Below, in pieces: positions 38,781 to 46,481 of a stretch of 64,000 bases of DNA (the first letter of the stretch is position 1; the number at the start of each line of letters is the position of its first letter). The notes beneath the pieces were generated by a model. It worked only from the letters and a program-made list of their open reading frames with translations. It searched no databases and was not told where the DNA came from. The stretch is from assembly GCA_024653205.1 (NCBI GenBank), contig JANLFO010000003.1, positions 19,901 through 83,900 on the forward strand, given 5' to 3'. Position numbers and translations under genes: made by a program. This stretch comes from Clostridia bacterium. Lineage in GTDB: Bacteria; Bacillota; DSM-521; Neomoorellales; SLTJ01.

Positions 38781-39992
38781 TTGAACGCTTTCGATACCGC
38801 ACAGGATCTGCCCGACGCGCGGGGCTACTTCGGCCCCTTCGGCGGCCGCTACGTTCCCGAGGTGCTCGTTCCCGCGCTGGTAGAGCTGACCAGCGCCTAT
38901 CAGCAGGCCGTCGCCGACCCCGGGTTTCGGCGGGAACTGGAGGAACTCCTCAGACGCTGGGCCGGGCGCCCTACCCCGCTGTGGTTTGCGGAGAGGCTTA
39001 GCCGCCACTGCGGCGGAGCCCGCATCTACCTCAAGCGGGAGGACCTCGCCCACACCGGCGCCCACAAGATCAATAACGCCCTGGCCCAGGCCCTGCTGGC
39101 CCGCAGAATGGGCAAGCACCGCGTCGTGGCCGAAACCGGTGCCGGCCAGCACGGGGTGGCGTCAGCGGCGGCCTGCGCCGTGCTCGGGCTGGAGTGCGTG
39201 GTCTACATGGGCGAGGAGGACGTGCGGCGGCAGGCCCTCAACGTCTTCCGCATGCGGCTGTTGGGCGCCGAGGTGCGGCCGGTGTCGGCCGGAAGCCGCA
39301 CCCTCAAGGACGCCATCAACGAGGCCATCCGCGACTGGGTAACCAACGTGGGCACCACCCACTACCTCCTGGGCTCGGCCGTGGGGCCCCATCCCTACCC
39401 GGTGATGGTGCGCGAGTTCCAGGCGGTAATCGGCAGGGAGGCGCGGGAACAGATGCTCGAGCAGACCGGAGCCCTGCCCGACTGCGTGATCGCCTGCGTG
39501 GGAGGCGGCTCCAACGCCATCGGGATCTTCAGCGCCTTCATCCGCGACCCCCAGGTCCGCCTGGTGGGCGTGGAGGCCGGCGGGCGGGGCCTGGATACCG
39601 GCGAACACGCCGCCTCCCTGGTGGCCGGGAGCGTCGGGGTGCTGCACGGCGCCAAGATGTACCTGCTGCAGGACGAGCACGGACAGATCGGCACCACCCA
39701 CAGCATTTCCGCCGGGCTGGACTATCCCGGGGTGGGGCCCGAGCACAGCTTTCTCAAATCCGTCGGCAGGGCCGAATACGTGGCGGTCACCGACGAGGAG
39801 GCTCTGGAGGCCTTCCGGCTCCTCTGCCGGACGGAAGGCATCCTCCCCGCCCTGGAGCCGGCCCACGCTCTCGCCTACGCCACCCGCCTGGCCCCCGCCC
39901 TGGGCCCGGCAAAGTCGATCCTGGTCAACCTTTCCGGACGGGGCGACAAGGATATGGACATCGTGGCTTCCGCCCTAGGAGGGAGACTATGA
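38781..39992 (+). CDS. trpB: tryptophan synthase beta chain
   Basis: [16 protein letters not shown] (PLP Lys), [19 protein letters not shown]. Confidence 0.96.
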
Positions 39993-40819
39993 GCCGCATC
40001 GGCGCGATATTCTCGCCCGGCCGCCCGCCTGCCCTCATACCCTACCTTACCGCGGGCTACCCGGATGAGCGGGCCACCCTGGAAGCGGTGAGGTTGCTGG
40101 CAGCCGAAGGTGCCGACCTGGTGGAACTGGGCATCCCCTTTTCCGACCCTCTGGCCGACGGGGTTACCATCCAGAAGGCCAGCCACGAGGCGCTGAGCGC
40201 CGGAACTACCGCCGAGCGGTGCCTGGAGATGGCCCGGGAACTGCGCCGGCAGGTAGAAATCCCCCTGGTGTTCATGACCTACTACAACCCGGTGCTGCGC
40301 TACGGGCCGGAGGCCTTCTGCGCCCACTGCGCCCGGGCAGGGATCGACGGCCTAATCGTGCCGGATCTTCCCCCCGAAGAAGGCGGCGAACTGGAGGCCG
40401 CCTGCCGGGCGCACGGGCTGGACCTGATCTACCTCTTGGCCCCCACCAGCACCCCGGAGCGCATCCGTCTGGTGGCCGGCCGCTCCACCGGCTTTATTTA
40501 CCTGGTTTCCGTTACCGGCGTTACCGGCGCCCGCGACACCCTGCCCCCGGAACTGGCCGACCTGGTGGCGGCGGTCAGGCAGCACACCCGCCGGCCGGTA
40601 TGCGTGGGCTTCGGCATTTCCACGCCCGGGCAGGCGGCCGAAGTGGCCCGCTTGGCGGACGGGGTCATAGTGGGAAGCCGCATCGTGCAGATAATGGGTC
40701 AGGGAGAGAACTGGCGCTCGGAACTCACCCGGTTTGCCCGGCAGTTGAGGCAGGCGCTGGATAACAGCGCCGCCGACCCCCGCCGCGCCGGGCCTACTTC
40801 ACCAGCCGGCCGCGCATGA
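39989..40819 (+). CDS. trpA: tryptophan synthase alpha chain
   Basis: ATG overlaps the trpB stop (ATGA). [40 protein letters not shown]. The track ORF's 265 upstream codons are an out-of-frame overlap with trpB and are not coding. Confidence 0.94.
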
Positions 40820-41585
40820 GCCGGACCGGCAGGTTGAACAGGAGGCCGGCCACCACGGCCAGCCAGAGGGCGTGGGTCCAGAGAGACGAGCTCACGGCCC
40901 CCAGGACGAACGCCCGTACCAGGGCCACCGAGTGATAGAGCGGGGTGAGCCAGCTCAGGCTGCGCACCACGGCCGGCAGACCTTCCACGGGAAAGAAAAC
41001 CCCGCCGAAGAGAAACATGGGGGTGATCAGGAGGGTGAAGAAGTAGTTGAAGGTCTCGATTCGCGGGGCAAAACTGGTCCAGACCATGGAAAGCTCGGCG
41101 AAGATCAGGCCGGCCAGGGCCAGCACCGGCGGCGCCAGCAAGACCCAGGGAGAGGCCACCAGACCCAGCAGGCAGAGCACGACGATTATTACCGAACCGT
41201 AGAGCACGCTCTTGAAGGCGCCGTAGAACATCTCCGCGGCAATCAGTTCCTCTACGCTCACCGGCGTGGCGGTAATGGCCTCGTACACCCGCTGGTAATG
41301 CAGCCGCACGAAGCTGTCGTAGGTGCATTCGGCCGCCGTGGCCCACATGGCCGAGGAGGCCACCAGACCCGGGGCCACGAATTGCAGGTAACTCATGCCC
41401 TCTATGTTCTGGACGTAGCTCCCCAGGCCGTACCCCATGGCCACCAGGTACAGCACCGGCTCGATGAAGTTGAACATGAGGTTGGACTTCCAGTTCTTCT
41501 TGAAGACCACCAGGTTGCGGTAGCATACGGTCCAGACCAGAGGGGTGAGCCTCGGCCACAGGAACAGGGGCAGCGGGTTCTTCAA
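40794..41585 (-). CDS. ABC-2 type transporter permease (NodJ/DrrB-like)
   Basis: A 263-aa six-TM protein. The TTG start overlaps the ATPase stop (TTGA). Its 3' end overlaps the trpA 3' end by 26 nt (convergent). Confidence 0.85.
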
Positions 41586-42547
41586 TCCCCTATCCCCCTC
41601 CCGGTCAGCTTGAAGAACACGTCTTCCAGGTTGGCGGGACGCACCCGGCGGTACGGCAGAGGAAATGAAAGCCGCGGCAGGACTTCTTCGGAAAGGCCGT
41701 CGCCGTCGAAGGGAAAGAAGAATACCTCGCCCACCCGGTAGTAATCCCGGCAGTACGGCCGCAGGCGCTCCAACAGCTCCGCCTGCCACTCCGGTGCCAC
41801 GCTTACCTCCAGCACCTGCCGGCCGATGTGCTTGGCCACCAGGGCCTGGGGTTCCCCAATTTCCAGTATCCGACCCCGGTCCATTACGGCCAGGCGGTCG
41901 CACAGGGCGTGGGCCTCTTCCAGGTAGTGGGTGGTCAGTATCAGCGTGAGCCCCTCTTCCCTCAGGTGGCGCAGCCGCTGCCACACCAGCTGCCGCACCT
42001 GAGGGTCCAGACCGGCGGTAGGCTCGTCCAGAACCAACAGGGCCGGCCGGTTCACCAGGGCCCGGGCCAGGGTGAGCCGCCGCTTCAACCCGCCGGAAAG
42101 CTCCTCCACCGGCCGGTTAGCCCTATCGGCCAGATCCATGAATTCCAGCAGTTCCCACGCCCGCCTTCGGGCCTCCGCACCCTTCAGGCCGAAGTAGCGG
42201 GCGTAGACCAGCAGATTCTCCAGCACGGTCAGCTCGGGATCGAGATTGTCGCTCTGGGAAACCACTCCCAGGCGCTGCTTGATCTCCCGGGCCTGCCTGA
42301 GCGGTGAGCGTCCCAGAACCCGCAACTCGCCCCCGCCCGGAGGCAGGGAGCAGCAGATCATCCTTACGGTGGTGGTCTTGCCGGCGCCGTTGGGCCCCAG
42401 GAAACCGAAACACTCCCGGTACGAGATGGCAAAATCGATTCCGTCCACGGCCTTAAGGCCGGAAAAATCCTTGGCCAGGCCTCTGGCCGTTACTGCGTAT
42501 TCGTTCTCCGGTGCGTACATCGGCGCGTCACCCGCGAAACCGGCCAC
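41582..42547 (-). CDS. ABC transporter ATP-binding protein (NodI/DrrA-like)
   Basis: Walker A GPNGAGKTT, signature LSGGLKRRL, Walker B LLVLDEPTAGLD. The start is uncertain (GTG 42547 or ATG 42520). Confidence 0.92.
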   Translation of the reverse strand: MAGFAGDAPMYAPENEYAVTARGLAKDFSGLKAVDGIDFAISYRECFGFLGPNGAGKTTTVRMICCSLPPGGGELRVLGRSPLRQAREIKQRLGVVSQSDNLDPELTVLENLLVYARYFGLKGAEARRRAWELLEFMDLADRANRPVEELSGGLKRRLTLARALVNRPALLVLDEPTAGLDPQVRQLVWQRLRHLREEGLTLILTTHYLEEAHALCDRLAVMDRGRILEIGEPQALVAKHIGRQVLEVSVAPEWQAELLERLRPYCRDYYRVGEVFFFPFDGDGLSEEVLPRLSFPLPYRRVRPANLEDVFFKLTGRGIGD

Positions 42548-42610
42548 GGCGGCAAGAAACGGGCCCCTCTGCCAGGAGCCTCCCGCCCCGGACAGCCGGG
42601 CCGGGAACGT

Positions 42611-43543
42611 CTACCAGGGGAACCCCCGGGAGGGAACCGCAAGGGCCTGCGGCCGCGGCCCCGATCGGGCCAGGATCGCGCCGGTCAGAGCGCCGAAAAC
42701 CAGGTTGGACCCCGCCAGCTCCATCAGGTGGATCCTGGCTACCGCCTCCGGCATGTACGGGTTGGGCAGCAGCAGCTGCAGGCTCCAGACCGAGAAAAGC
42801 ATCGCCGTGGCCAGGCATACCTCCCAGCGCCCGCCCGGGTGCACTCCGATCACGGGCAGGGCAAGGACAGCCCAAAGCAGGCCGCGAAAGGCCTGAAAGG
42901 CAAACATCCAGGGAGTAGAATCCCACACCGCAGCCACCTGGGCGACGAGGCTGGCGGCCTCGGCACCGCCGTAGAAGGCGCGCACCTCGGGCCTTGCCCA
43001 GGCCACGAAGTATCCGAAGCAGAAGTATAACGCCACGTAGATTCCCGCTACCGCCGCCAGCCGCCAGACCCAGCCCCAGGCCGAACGGCGTAAACCCGGC
43101 AGCCTGGGTGCGGCCACCAGCCGGGCCTGCCACTTCCCCAGCAGGGCCACCGCCGCTACCGCAAAGACGGCGGCCACCAGCGCGCCCGCTCCAATCAGCC
43201 GGGTTACGGTGTCCGGCGGCAGGCCCAGGTATACCAGGGATTCCAGCTGGTTAATCAGGGTGTTAAGGCCGAAAAAGGCCACGAACACCGTGGCCGCCAG
43301 TGCCCAGCCGGTTTGTCGCGCCCGCAGGATCAGGTAGGTCATCACCGCCGCCTCGGCCAGGCCGACCAGGAACAGCAGCGCCAGGGTGCGGCCCCCCTCG
43401 GCCGCCAAGGCCTCCGCGTCGATCTCCCCTGCGGCCGGCACGCCTACCAGGACGGAGAATAGGGGGGTACAAACCGCCAATACCACCGCGAGCAGCACTA
43501 TCTTGGCTACAAGAACCCCTGCCCGCCTTGAGCCTCGAGACAA
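42611..43543 (-). CDS. hypothetical polytopic membrane protein (310 aa), first gene of the ABC-2 module
   Basis: TTG start follows GGGGAGGAGG. About 8 hydrophobic segments. No family recognised by eye. Confidence 0.6.
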   Translation of the reverse strand: MSRGSRRAGVLVAKIVLLAVVLAVCTPLFSVLVGVPAAGEIDAEALAAEGGRTLALLFLVGLAEAAVMTYLILRARQTGWALAATVFVAFFGLNTLINQLESLVYLGLPPDTVTRLIGAGALVAAVFAVAAVALLGKWQARLVAAPRLPGLRRSAWGWVWRLAAVAGIYVALYFCFGYFVAWARPEVRAFYGGAEAASLVAQVAAVWDSTPWMFAFQAFRGLLWAVLALPVIGVHPGGRWEVCLATAMLFSVWSLQLLLPNPYMPEAVARIHLMELAGSNLVFGALTGAILARSGPRPQALAVPSRGFPW

Positions 43544-43929
43544 AAGGCCTCCTCCCCTCTCTCGGACGAATGGCCGCGAGCCCTCCGGACCCGCCGTTTT
43601 CCCTCTCCCCTATAGTTCTCGCCCGAGAGAATTTTCCCTCCCCAAGCCGGGCTGGGATTCACTGCAATCCGGCATGGTAAGTCCCCGGATACAGGCTCCG
43701 ACGTCATTGTCTACCAGGTCAATTTGGGAAACGTGACGGCCGAGACATGGCTCTCCAGACGGCCGGCGCCAGGCTTCTCTCAGACACGCTGCAGCCAAGC
43801 GCAGTCGAAATGGGTAGGCCCGCGTCCGGTTCAATCCCCTTTTTTCAGCACGATCACATTGACCGCCAACGCCTCTGCACCCCCCCTGAGCACATTAGGG
43901 CAATGGTCTAACGGACTAAAATCGTACGC

Positions 43930-45540
43930 TCCCAATCCTGACGGAAGCAGCTCACAAGAAGGCCGTTTTTACGATAAAGGCTGAGAGACAGCAAGCATCC
44001 ATAATACAGAAGTACGATCCTGGTAGTTGTTTGAATTACTGGGCTTGCTCGTTGCCATGACCATTAGCAAGCATTGAGTCGAGAATCCTGGGCAATACTG
44101 TTTCACATGTTCCGCAGGCCTTAAGTATTCTACCATGGTCAAAGCGATCGATATGCACATCGAATCGGCCCCTTAACGCAGGTACCAAACTTGCGTCAGT
44201 GTCAACCACGATCATCTTCTGATTCTCATTCGTTGCCATAGATCTCGAGATGATCTTGGTTATGTAGGCGTCAGATTCAGAGAATGAGTATCCAACGATT
44301 ATCAGGACAGCTGCTTCTTCAATGCTCTGCCTTGCATAATTCCATATATCTACCAAGCTTGGAAACATTAAGAACTTGAATGATAGAGGAGGAACTAGCA
44401 GCGGCCGACGCAAGCCGCCGCACTTTTTGCAAATGCCGAGTACCGGGTAACTAAGTGTGTCCGCCTCGAATATTTTCTTCACTTCAAGCAAATTAAATTC
44501 GCGTACATCCTGGCAGGAACTACAGTATGACCAGTTTATAGAGCCGTGCATTTTGATCAATTGAACGGCATTCGGATTATCTTCGTTTTTTCCGCTAATC
44601 GTTCCTCTAAGGGTAATTTTCTCAGTTAGCAGTGCTTCATCCATGCAACCGTCATAGTTCGTTGTAATAATCGTTGTGTGATTATGCTTTTGAATGAAAT
44701 TAACAATGGCCTTGTGTGTTTCATTAGGAGGTGCAGCAATCATAGTACTCGTTAGGAGACCAAACAACGTTTGTAGAGTATCCTGGAGAAAACCAATGGA
44801 CGATACGTCTGCCATAATTCGCCTAATGCTTCCGAAGGTTTCACCCTCCCCACCAACTTCTTGACCCATAGAGTACAAGAAATAATCAACTAGGGCAGTA
44901 ATATGTCTGTTCTTAGCGATAAAATCAGAAACATAAGCGGCAGTCAGCAGATCTTCTATATTCTTTATTTGTCGCCTGTCACACCACCTGCGTAGGTTCT
45001 CCAAGTCTTCACGGCCTATTTTTCTCGCTCTATTCCACAGCTCCGGCAGCAACTGCTTGACCGTGGGGATGCCTGAGTAGGCAGAAGCTCCAGCACCTAG
45101 CAAGAAGGTAACCTTAGTGTCATTACTAACCCTTATGCCCCATACTTCTTTATCTATTACAGGTTCCTCTTCTACTGACATTATCGCTTGACTGATTTCC
45201 TTGATTATAGCCGGAGGGAACCTATCTGCGAATACCTCATACTTTCGCCATATCTCTACCCACCTCGGATCCAACGGTTCGTCCTCTGGTTTCCGTTGTA
45301 GAAACTCATGCATAATGCGGATGGCAAATGTAACAGGGGGGTATTGTTCCAATCTTGTCAATACATGTTGTTGTCGTGGAGAAATGTCTGCCATTTCATC
45401 ACCTCCTAGTAGTGATTTTGCGGTTCCACCCTCATGGTTTACCGCTCGTTCGCCTCTAGCTGTTGATTATGGTCACAAACCGTTCCAGTCCCTCGTCGGC
45501 TCAGTGTTCCGATTGCACGGCGAATTCTTTACACCCTGTA
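43930..45540. other. low-GC islet (putative horizontally acquired insertion) carrying only the SIR2-like gene
   Basis: Hand counts of 60-nt lines give 35-52% GC inside, against about 60-73% in the flanks. Codon choice is AT-rich. No integrase, transposase, tRNA or clear direct repeats. Confidence 0.7.
44036..45394 (-). CDS. SIR2-family protein (SIR2_2-like NAD-binding/NADase fold with sirtuin-like Zn ribbon), 452 aa
   Basis: ATG lies 7 nt after AGGAGGTGA. Motifs are FLLGAGASAYSGIP (res 97-110), ITTNYDGCMDEAL (243-255), KMHGSINW (His283), CSSC(291-294)...CKKCGG(322-327)LRRP, and IIVGYSFSESD (365-375). The N-terminal 95 aa are unassigned. Confidence 0.8.
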   Translation of the reverse strand: MADISPRQQHVLTRLEQYPPVTFAIRIMHEFLQRKPEDEPLDPRWVEIWRKYEVFADRFPPAIIKEISQAIMSVEEEPVIDKEVWGIRVSNDTKVTFLLGAGASAYSGIPTVKQLLPELWNRARKIGREDLENLRRWCDRRQIKNIEDLLTAAYVSDFIAKNRHITALVDYFLYSMGQEVGGEGETFGSIRRIMADVSSIGFLQDTLQTLFGLLTSTMIAAPPNETHKAIVNFIQKHNHTTIITTNYDGCMDEALLTEKITLRGTISGKNEDNPNAVQLIKMHGSINWSYCSSCQDVREFNLLEVKKIFEADTLSYPVLGICKKCGGLRRPLLVPPLSFKFLMFPSLVDIWNYARQSIEEAAVLIIVGYSFSESDAYITKIISRSMATNENQKMIVVDTDASLVPALRGRFDVHIDRFDHGRILKACGTCETVLPRILDSMLANGHGNEQAQ

Positions 45541-45698
45541 CCCCTTTGGACCTACAGTCCACGCCGGGCAACCAAGCGTCGCGCCGCCTTCGGCCATCGA
45601 CCAGCCTCAGCCGCCGGTATCTTCGACACGTCGCCTCCTAGATATCATTCGAGGTCGACGACAGGATTCCTCCTACTATCTGGCAACTCATGGAGGAA

Positions 45699-46481
45699 TT
45701 ACCGGCGCCCGGTGCCGCATAAGGGGCAGTCGGGGTTGCGCTCTATCTTCACTTCCCGGAAGGACATGCAGAGGGCGTCGAAAAGAAGGAGCCTGCCGGC
45801 AAGGGGGCTGCCCGCCCCCAGGATGAGCTTTAGCGCCTCCGCCGCCTGAATGACGCCGATGACGCCGGGTGCCACGCCCATTACCCCGGCCTCGCGGGCG
45901 CCGGCCACCGCGCCGGCCGGTGGCGGAACCGGGAAGAGGCACCGGTAGCAGGGGCTCTGCCCGGGGAGGATGGTGGTCACCATGCCCTCCCAGCGCAGGA
46001 CCCCGGCCTCAATCAGCGGCTTTCCGGCCGAATGGCAGGCGTCGTTCACCACGTAGCGGCTGGGAAGGTTGTCCACCGCGTCGATCACCAGATCGTAACT
46101 GGCGACGAGGGAAAGGGCATTGTCCGGAGAAAGGGTGAGCGGGTGAGGCTCAACCCTCACCTCGGGGTTGAGGGCTTCCACGGCCTCCTTCGCCGAGAGG
46201 GCCTTGGGCCGGCCGATCCGGCCGGTGGCGTGCAGAACCTGGCGCTGCAGGTTGGAAAGCTCTACCCGGTCGGCGTCCACCAGCCCCAGGGTGCCCACGC
46301 CGGCGGCCGCCAGGTAGAGCGCCGCCGGGGAGCCCAGGCCTCCGGCGCCTACGATCAATACCCTGGCCCGGCGCAGCTTTTCCTGGCCCGCCTCCCCTAC
46401 CTCGGGCAGGACAAGCTGGCGCGAGTAGCGCGCCTGCTGCTCAGGAGTCAGTCCGGATGCTTTCACCCTTTCTCCCCTCAT
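45699..46481 (-). CDS. moeB: ThiF/MoeB family adenylyltransferase (molybdopterin-synthase or sulfur-carrier adenylyltransferase)
   Basis: YSRQLVLPEVGEAGQEKL...VLIVGAGGLGSPAALYLAAAGVG, plus CYRC...CPLC zinc ligands. Confidence 0.88.
   Translation of the reverse strand: MRGERVKASGLTPEQQARYSRQLVLPEVGEAGQEKLRRARVLIVGAGGLGSPAALYLAAAGVGTLGLVDADRVELSNLQRQVLHATGRIGRPKALSAKEAVEALNPEVRVEPHPLTLSPDNALSLVASYDLVIDAVDNLPSRYVVNDACHSAGKPLIEAGVLRWEGMVTTILPGQSPCYRCLFPVPPPAGAVAGAREAGVMGVAPGVIGVIQAAEALKLILGAGSPLAGRLLLFDALCMSFREVKIERNPDCPLCGTGRR

Follow-up and report, generated by a model that had tools for sequence, protein, structure and literature searches.

Standalone SIR2 enzymes have been described within loci of clustered regularly interspaced short palindromic repeats (CRISPR) and their Cas proteins. 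Sole-Sir2, a standalone SIR2 NADase of ~440 amino acids (aa), is found in CRISPR-Cas loci by solitary repeat units and hydrolyses nicotinamide adenine dinucleotide (NAD+) to ADP-ribose (bioRxiv 10.1101/2024.12.27.630466). It is DSR2-like, carries a C-terminal Sir2 domain and lies inside type I-C cas operons, and solitary repeat units regulate defence genes within cas operons, standalone Sir2 included, in the arrangement called CRISIS (10.1101/2024.12.27.630466). Here, we analyzed a stretch of 64,000 nucleotides (nt) from the genome of a Clostridia bacterium (assembly GCA_024653205.1, contig JANLFO010000003.1, positions 19,901 to 83,900; hereafter the window), in which an islet of low guanine-cytosine (GC) content holds one gene for a 452-aa SIR2-family protein. 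The gene lies between moeB and an operon encoding a membrane protein, an ABC ATPase and an ABC-2 permease. The locus is a clean and fairly ordinary case of defence-hotspot turnover, and the gene is a one-gene defence candidate of the SIR2 type, gained by horizontal transfer. We consider it probable, well short of certain, that the islet is a recently acquired single-gene SIR2 cassette sitting in a former CRISPR-Cas slot and encoding a candidate NAD+-consuming defence protein. Two features take the locus somewhat beyond the routine: the scar of a CRISPR leader and repeat reveals what the SIR2 gene replaced, and the protein belongs to an uncharacterised SIR2 family with a zinc (Zn) ribbon, whose gene forms a low-GC islet in nearly every host.

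With DSR1, DSR2 and sole-Sir2, the locus shares a single gene without a partner, a SIR2 catalytic domain accompanied by possible sensing regions, and a defence context. The architecture differs, however. DSR1 and DSR2 are ~1,000-1,250 aa long, with SIR2 at the N terminus and a large sensor at the C terminus, whereas the present protein has 452 aa; Dsr1 models gave it 14.3 bits against a cut-off of 1,400 (NCBIfam) and an E-value of 0.0044 (PADLOC), and DSR2 was missing from its top 50 Foldseek matches. Judged by the description of sole-Sir2, the present protein departs from it in that the SIR2 domain makes up most of the chain, with no surrounding cas operon and no spacer-like target. CRISIS and sole-Sir2 are embedded in a cas operon, but we found no cas genes in the neighbourhood within the window; likewise, a CRISIS repeat unit has a spacer-like part that in part matches the promoter of the gene it regulates, but the 16-20 nt after the repeat relic described below had only chance-level matches in the genome. 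The SIR2 subunit of SIR2-HerA (Nezha) was the best structural match and is similar in size (subunit ~340-400 aa). Unlike that system, the present gene has no HerA-like open reading frame (ORF) in 41-48.5 kb of the window, nor does any of 29 homologues have one beside it, and identity to the subunit is only ~16%. Thoeris ThsA (SIR2-SLOG) and SPARSA (SIR2-APAZ with a short prokaryotic Argonaute, pAgo) offer a SIR2 NADase effector as a point of likeness, but the present protein has neither SLOG nor APAZ and the window holds no ThsB (TIR) or pAgo partner; the PADLOC model of ThsA reached E 0.0068 and the Aga_SIR2 matches were partial only.

Canonical sirtuins (Sir2Af1/Af2, Sir2Tm, CobB) share with the present protein the GAGxS...GIPT loop, the N/D pair, the catalytic His and the four-Cys Zn ribbon. 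By comparison with them, the protein is ~200 aa longer owing to an N-terminal extension and a ~125-aa insertion, has the FGE motif replaced, and falls under the cut-offs of the hidden Markov models (HMMs) for that group. Canonical sirtuins are inherited vertically, whereas the present family is patchy, solitary and compositionally foreign. At the level of the locus, the likeness is to defence hotspots, with conserved flanks, immune cargo that varies by strain or species, and cargo without mobility genes; unlike the usual hotspot, this slot is tiny (one gene in 2 kb) and retains a relic of its previous occupant.

In 300-nt sliding windows, GC content was 0.41-0.48 across ~43.9-45.4 kb of the window, against 0.63-0.72 on either side. 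A maximum-likelihood fit of two change points over 42.6-46.6 kb placed the edges of the islet at 43,891 and 45,533 (GC 0.664 to the left, 0.450 within, 0.674 to the right), in good agreement with the 43,930-45,540 proposed by an earlier sequence-only reading of this DNA. The islet is also unlike the rest of its own genome (2,455,280 bp in 51 contigs, mean GC 0.639). Genome-wide windows of 1.5 kb had a mean GC of 0.640 with a standard deviation of 0.036; the islet region, at 0.453 (z ~ -5.2), was the lowest among 9,553 windows of the 2.46-Mb genome, and the next-lowest islands bottomed at 0.495-0.53. The AT-rich third codon positions that the same reading had noticed in the SIR2 gene were confirmed by computation: GC content at third positions (GC3) was 0.45 in the SIR2 ORF versus 0.80-0.85 in five neighbours (the membrane gene, the ABC ATPase gene, moeB, spoIVA and gpsA). 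Because the gap is this large, neither expression level nor amino-acid composition can explain the codon bias. We relied on sliding-window GC rather than on ranking long ORFs by GC3, since shadow ORFs in wrong frames confound such a ranking in a high-GC genome like this one. By composition, the DNA of the islet is foreign.

The islet of ~1.6 kb holds only one credible ORF, the SIR2-family gene at 44036..45394 on the minus strand (452 aa, GC 0.444, GC3 0.45), assigned by Pfam, the family alignment, an AlphaFold2 (AF2) model, Foldseek and a PDB phmmer search. Its low-GC 3′ flank (43891..44035, minus strand), bounded by the change point at 43,891, forms the left end of the compositional islet. 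To the left, the native flank begins with the gene for a 310-aa polytopic membrane protein of native GC content (42611..43543, minus strand), the first gene of the membrane protein/ABC ATPase/ABC-2 permease operon. To the right, it begins with the moeB/ThiF-family gene (45699..46481, minus strand; GC 0.69; Pfam ThiF 1.2e-87), which is 78% identical to the same-genus copy.

The slot between these flanks is a defence locus that varies between strains. JGI contig Ga0417229_000053 matches the window at 100% identity, and the informative comparison is with a conspecific strain (L030/L156, JGI 3300012949), which is 99.25% identical to window positions 39,917-43,659 over 3,743 bp. The match spans trpA, the ABC-2 permease gene, the ABC ATPase gene and the membrane-protein gene, together with 116 nt upstream of the last; these 116 nt (43544..43659, minus strand), the promoter and 5′ untranslated region upstream of the operon, are the last sequence shared with the conspecific strain. 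Homology then breaks abruptly between 43659 and 43660, which defines the left junction. Past this break, the 15.4-kb conspecific contig L156 carries at least 11.6 kb of other cargo, namely a type III-D module of Cas10, two large RAMP proteins (RAMP fusions), Csx19 and a 424-aa Cas7-IIId/Csm3-like protein, of which no piece was found anywhere in the genome studied here. L156 contains no CRISPR array and no moeB, and the contig ends before moeB. A more distant Moorellales metagenome-assembled genome (MAG; L031) has 70-80% nucleotide identity over the shared operon and the downstream genes, with homology ending at ~43,670; directly upstream of the same operon, it encodes type III RAMP genes, a Card1-like nuclease and a Csx1/Csm6 CARF-HEPN protein. 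As a side observation, the conspecific cargo also includes a 94-aa RDD-family protein and a fragment of an HExxH (M48/HtpX-like) peptidase (L156:1-1800).

The sequence-only reading had the islet starting at 43,930 and sitting exactly between native operons. The flanks are indeed native, but the space between them is not a plain gap: it is a pre-existing variable defence locus with a CRISPR relic, and the strain-specific segment begins at 43,660, with 43,660-43,890 absent from the conspecific strain. This additional segment (43660..43890, no strand assigned) has a near-native GC content of ~0.58 and is also absent from the relatives: in a search of 60 relatives, it had no match at E≤0.05 in family- or order-level genomes and two short marginal matches (E ~0.01) in distant genomes of the same phylum. 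It contains no CRISPR repeat-like element and may be a relic of earlier cargo. We obtained no empty site in relatives. In the same-genus genome G001, one contig (G001:C25, L008) ends in the last moeB codons, equivalent to window position 45,715, and another (G001:C3, L014) ends 10 bp upstream of the membrane-gene start, equivalent to 43,553; such assembly breaks at both slot edges would fit repeats or heterogeneity among strains at this site. The genes that come after moeB in G002 and G003 are different ones. Looking up the exact proteins of moeB, SpoIVA and PlsY returned no second strain, and a metagenome scan with moeB gave matches of ≤61% identity only.

The identity of the previous occupant is preserved in the 304 nt (minus strand) between the moeB stop and the SIR2 start. 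Starting ~27 nt past the moeB stop codon, a CRISPR-leader hairpin motif, AGGAATCCTGTCGTCGACCTCGAATGAT (45644..45671, minus strand), forms a 28-nt block that is identical at 25/28 positions, with an exact run of 18 nt (45647-45664), to the sequence that immediately follows cas2 in the same-genus contig G001:C15. There, the leader directly follows cas1-cas2 and serves a 50-repeat array of a type I-B (plus Cmr6) locus. In 1,000 shuffles, the alignment score of this block was never reached. The block is the first arm of a hairpin that is also seen in genome G023, in two array leaders; these arrays are of the same 30-nt repeat class (GTTTG...GGGATTGAAAC). All three non-self occurrences of the motif among 60 relatives are CRISPR leaders, and the motif is unique in its own genome. 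About 150 nt downstream, in the correct order and orientation, ACGAGGGACTGGAAC (45,482-45,496) matches the 3′ half of the repeat at 13/15 positions and is the sole match with ≤2 mismatches to that half in the whole genome; it belongs to a degenerate repeat relic at 45482..45511 (minus strand), the counterpart of the same-genus repeat GTTTGCAGCCTACCTACGAGGGATTGAAAC. The compositional islet begins right after this degenerate repeat. By sequence comparison, the element is a relic of a CRISPR leader with one degenerate repeat. An array has at least two regularly spaced repeats, and the single degenerate copy falls short of this: there is no second repeat on the far (left) side of the cassette and no further copy was found, and we rejected the idea of a 'giant spacer' for want of that second repeat on the left.

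The only CRISPR-Cas locus of the genome, which is 98.8% complete, is a distant one of type I, and its 37-nt repeat is different. The genome has two arrays, G000:C9:46053-49700, which is broken by a run of N, and C11:76748-78008; their 37-nt repeats are GTAGCACCCGGCCTTCGGGCCGGGTGGGGATTGAAAC and GTAGCATCCGTGGTTCGAGCCGCGGCCCCGTTGAAGC. Within the relic leader, we also noted a 25-codon ORF starting with GTG and preceded by a good Shine-Dalgarno sequence (MSKIPAAEAGRWPKAARRLVARRGL; 45552-45629, minus strand), which is probably fortuitous.

Since CRISPR-Cas occupies the slot in the conspecific strain and in another Moorellales lineage, and has left a scar here, CRISPR-Cas is the older occupant and the SIR2 gene the newcomer. 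The un-ameliorated GC3, together with 99.25% flank identity between strains whose alleles differ, points to a recent event, which makes the 'old' acquisition suggested by the sequence-only reading unlikely. Its failure to see an integrase, transposase, tRNA target or convincing repeats was, by contrast, well founded. No tRNA was detected across the 64-kb window, no integrase or transposase ORF within 41-48.5 kb, and only chance-level direct or inverted repeats flanking the islet. The locus thus lacks the attributes of a classical integrative island, that is, an integrase or transposase, a tRNA or att target and flanking repeats. With neither mobility genes nor a tRNA target nor duplications, homologous recombination through the flanks or illegitimate recombination within an array is the likely route. 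We propose that the slot between moeB and the membrane/ABC-2 operon would earlier have held CRISPR-Cas, as it still does in the conspecific strain, and that a promoter-poor SIR2 cassette of ~1.6 kb would have replaced the CRISPR locus or landed in it. The exchange could have been an allelic replacement through homologous recombination via the conserved flanks after DNA uptake, or an illegitimate recombination inside the array. A foreign single SIR2 gene without mobility genes is best read as a defence islet exchanged by recombination, as had been surmised from the sequence.

Neither an intrinsic terminator nor a promoter was predicted between moeB and the SIR2 gene or 3′ of the SIR2 gene. The gene has the same orientation as the old leader and spoIVA-moeB, and is preceded by the Shine-Dalgarno sequence AGGAGGTGA (45399..45407, minus strand), 4 nt upstream of the ATG at 45394. 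Given this co-orientation, the Shine-Dalgarno sequence and the lack of a predicted upstream terminator, the SIR2 gene is probably transcribed from the relic leader or by read-through. A riboswitch or other non-coding RNA in the flanks was considered and rejected: nothing in the islet or flanks came near an Rfam gathering score, and the RNA folds of the flanks, including 43891..44035, were no better than those of shuffled sequences.

We next turn to the protein. In the source metagenome, the gene was called with 425 aa, starting at Met28 (L112:11169-12446); we prefer the 452-aa start to this JGI call because AGGAGGTGA stands at 4-nt spacing and homologues align from residue 1-4 of the 452-aa form. 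Pfam identified SIR2_2 (1.8e-10) and SIR2 (3.5e-9) and no other domain. In an alignment of 45 homologues (47-67% identical), the invariant residues comprise G100, G102 and S104 (GAGAS, 100-104), I109-P110, N246 and D248 (TTNYD), H283 (MHGS), and C291, C294, C322 and C325 of the Zn ribbon; in the alignment with Sir2Af1/Af2, they fall on the NAD loop, the catalytic Asn/Asp/His and the Zn ribbon. The protein has an N-terminal helical extension of ~90 aa, and a strongly conserved helical insertion (~112-236, ~125 aa) separates the NAD loop from TTNYD. At the position of the acyl-lysine-binding FGE motif, the sequence alignment places LSFKF, which is invariant in the family. An AF2 model computed from the alignment (predicted local distance difference test score 81.5, predicted template-modelling score 0.75) retrieved the SIR2 subunits of antiphage SIR2-HerA/Nezha as top Foldseek matches (8wld/8su9/8sub; E 1.6e-10, template-modelling scores 0.5-0.6, ~400 columns), with canonical Sir2Af and Sir2Tm next and close behind (E ~1e-9); identity was ~16% throughout.

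The SIR2 family to which this protein belongs is small, rare and patchy, with members in archaea and in over 12 bacterial phyla. When 1.84 billion cluster representatives were searched exhaustively with phmmer, 77 clusters (50% identity) passed E≤1e-30 and 456 passed E≤1e-10. The proteins most similar to the present one (64-67% identity) belong to Methanophagales, candidate division WOR-3 or Iainarchaeum, or lie on metagenome contigs; further members occur in Theionarchaea, Helarchaeota, Methanobacterium paludis, Chloroflexota, Planctomycetota, Myxococcota, Acidobacteriota, Actinomycetota, Omnitrophota and other lineages. A search of 40 relatives of the genome studied here, the same-genus genome included, turned up no close homologue. 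To place the islet in a wider setting, we surveyed 29 loci from species-representative genomes. The SIR2-family gene had a lower GC content than its own flanks in 28 of the 29, with a mean deficit of 9 points and a maximum of 22; the single-gene low-GC islet is therefore a family-wide property, as for a frequently transferred accessory gene. No family of neighbouring ORFs was common to more than two of the 29 loci. The search for a partner gene or a small upstream ORF ended negatively, as the 40-49-aa upstream ORFs of a few members are mutually unrelated and no neighbour is conserved.

Approximately 10 of the 102 nearest neighbours matched PADLOC defence families at E≤1e-10, with some of the family matches collapsing onto one protein. 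The families include ThsB, HmaC, LmuB, pAgo with Aga_SIR2, DolB/PDC-M37B, mad2 and several PDCs. Among loci L122-L148, one homologue has a strong ThsB (TIR) match (E 1.7e-121) in its two nearest neighbours, and another has a pAgo and Aga_SIR2 pair nearby. Separately, the family member of a Dehalococcoidales MAG (L023/L124; 6837-7775, 12379-13080) adjoins a transposase of the IS1595 family, and an ordinary 233-aa SIR2 lies 3 kb from it, so that two SIR2 types coexist there.

The reading as an NAD+-consuming effector in phage defence, which on the protein and locus sequences we regard as slightly favoured, draws on the hotspot context, on a family that is mobile and solitary, on the structural similarity to Nezha SIR2 and on earlier examples of single-gene SIR2 defences. 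Under this reading, the protein would act as an NADase or ADP-ribosyltransferase and limit phage replication through abortive infection; the N-terminal region and the helical insertion, both specific to the family, would be its sensor. Several results weigh against it. The protein resembles a canonical sirtuin as much as a defence SIR2. Among solved structures, its best sequence matches are the Sir2Af1/Af2 deacetylases (E ~1e-5 by PDB phmmer), with which GAGxSxxSGIPT, N..D, HGS and CxxC...CxxC align; its best NCBIfam matches are CobB-type deacylases; canonical sirtuins score nearly equal to SIR2-HerA in Foldseek; and PADLOC models of defence SIR2 proteins gave weak, partial matches, the best at 3.7e-15. 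Defence SIR2 domains such as those of ThsA and DSR2 are not known to have a Zn ribbon, which the present protein retains. The defence enrichment near homologues is modest and suggestive, a figure without a proper background control, and searches of IMG/VR viral contigs, INPHARED phages and PLSDB plasmids yielded no member of the family. For the history of the slot, the contrary points are that the right junction is not defined by an alternative allele, only the left flank having been traced in relatives; that the 5′ half of the repeat is decayed, leaving 17/30 matches overall to GTTTGCAGCCTACCTACGAGGGATTGAAAC; and that the leader alignment outside the 28-nt block is not significant alone (194 of 2,000 shuffles). 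The sirtuin-like features suit the principal rival, a transferred non-immune sirtuin that would act as an NAD+-dependent deacylase or ADP-ribosyltransferase on host proteins and that landed in a recombination-prone slot. We judge this unlikely, though it deserves to be taken seriously. The deacylase HMMs are far under their cut-offs (NF001753 at 56.3 bits vs 243, prot_deacyl_CobB at 50.6 bits vs 320), the protein reaching no curated deacylase or defence-family threshold; LSFKF invariably takes the place of FGE; and the extreme patchiness across archaea and bacteria, the foreign composition in 28/29 hosts and the lack of conserved neighbours are hard to square with it. Moreover, the slot otherwise holds CRISPR-Cas, and the host with the ordinary 233-aa SIR2 already has such an enzyme 3 kb from its family member.

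The remaining alternatives concern the relic and the DNA itself. Either the leader and repeat could still be functional, giving a crRNA-like RNA with which a Cas complex supervises the SIR2 gene, or the cassette could have been integrated at the leader-proximal repeat by Cas1-Cas2. Such readings would fit a leader motif and a repeat-like element placed directly upstream of the SIR2 gene in the same orientation, and the regulation of defence genes by solitary repeat units has a published precedent (10.1101/2024.12.27.630466). However, homologues of the cognate Cas6b, type I-B and type III proteins are missing from the genome, the repeat has lost its 5′ half and has no second copy beyond the cassette, the would-be spacer after the relic has no target in the genome beyond chance, and no CRISPR arrays lie near the 29 other family members. 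Lacking both a spacer target and cognate cas genes, a crRNA-like regulator was rejected, and these readings as a whole appear quite improbable. An assembly artefact, in which a low-GC fragment of another organism was chimerically joined into the contig, is conceivable for a MAG whose window is identical to one JGI contig and so effectively represents one assembly. Yet the foreign DNA lies within a contig of 170-186 kb and is flanked by native sequence left and right, so that a chimera would take two independent false joins; in addition, the SIR2 gene is co-oriented with its neighbours and has a perfect Firmicute-type Shine-Dalgarno sequence, and its GC content of 0.44 lies between those of likely donors (0.35-0.39) and of the host, consistent with residence here. 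We regard an artefact as very improbable. Scarcely credible is an ancient resident gene whose low GC content reflects selection or expression level: although family members are below host GC almost everywhere, as a bias intrinsic to the family might in principle produce, searches of genomes of the same genus, family and order did not find the gene, and the locus is occupied by other cargo in the conspecific strain, so it is not a gene kept at one place in all relatives. The 37-point third-position deficit also goes beyond what amino-acid composition allows, and the nearest relatives of the protein are archaeal and WOR-3 proteins.

On the preferred reading of a SIR2 cassette in a former CRISPR-Cas slot, the locus captures a compact, strain-level immune turnover in an uncultured spore-forming Moorellales-like bacterium, from adaptive CRISPR-Cas to a one-gene candidate innate effector, with the leader and repeat scar dating the order of events. 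The family behaves as a mobile defence gene does in all genomes examined, and yet it retains the Zn ribbon and the motifs of true sirtuins. Should the protein prove to be an NADase in defence, its family would link canonical sirtuins to the defence SIR2 families and offer a single-gene system that is small and easy to test. For a deacylase, the low GC content and the pervasive horizontal transfer would have to be explained in some other way. A bolder proposal, which we put forward only as a long shot, is that the Zn-ribbon family of ~460 aa is a hitherto unrecognised, self-contained, single-gene antiphage NAD+-consuming system that spreads into defence slots as a minimal promoter-less cassette, and that here it displaced an array and co-opted the orphaned CRISPR leader for its expression.

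Finally, the next-lowest-GC islands of the genome (GC 0.50-0.53) lie at G000:C22:158928-162087, C19:19283-21697 and C11:122253-124412. They encode, respectively, a type I restriction-modification HsdS-like protein with an AAA/OLD-type ATPase, an 804-aa HD-domain protein and a 719-aa GNAT-containing protein, and are, judging from these gene products, probably further accessory or defence cargo.

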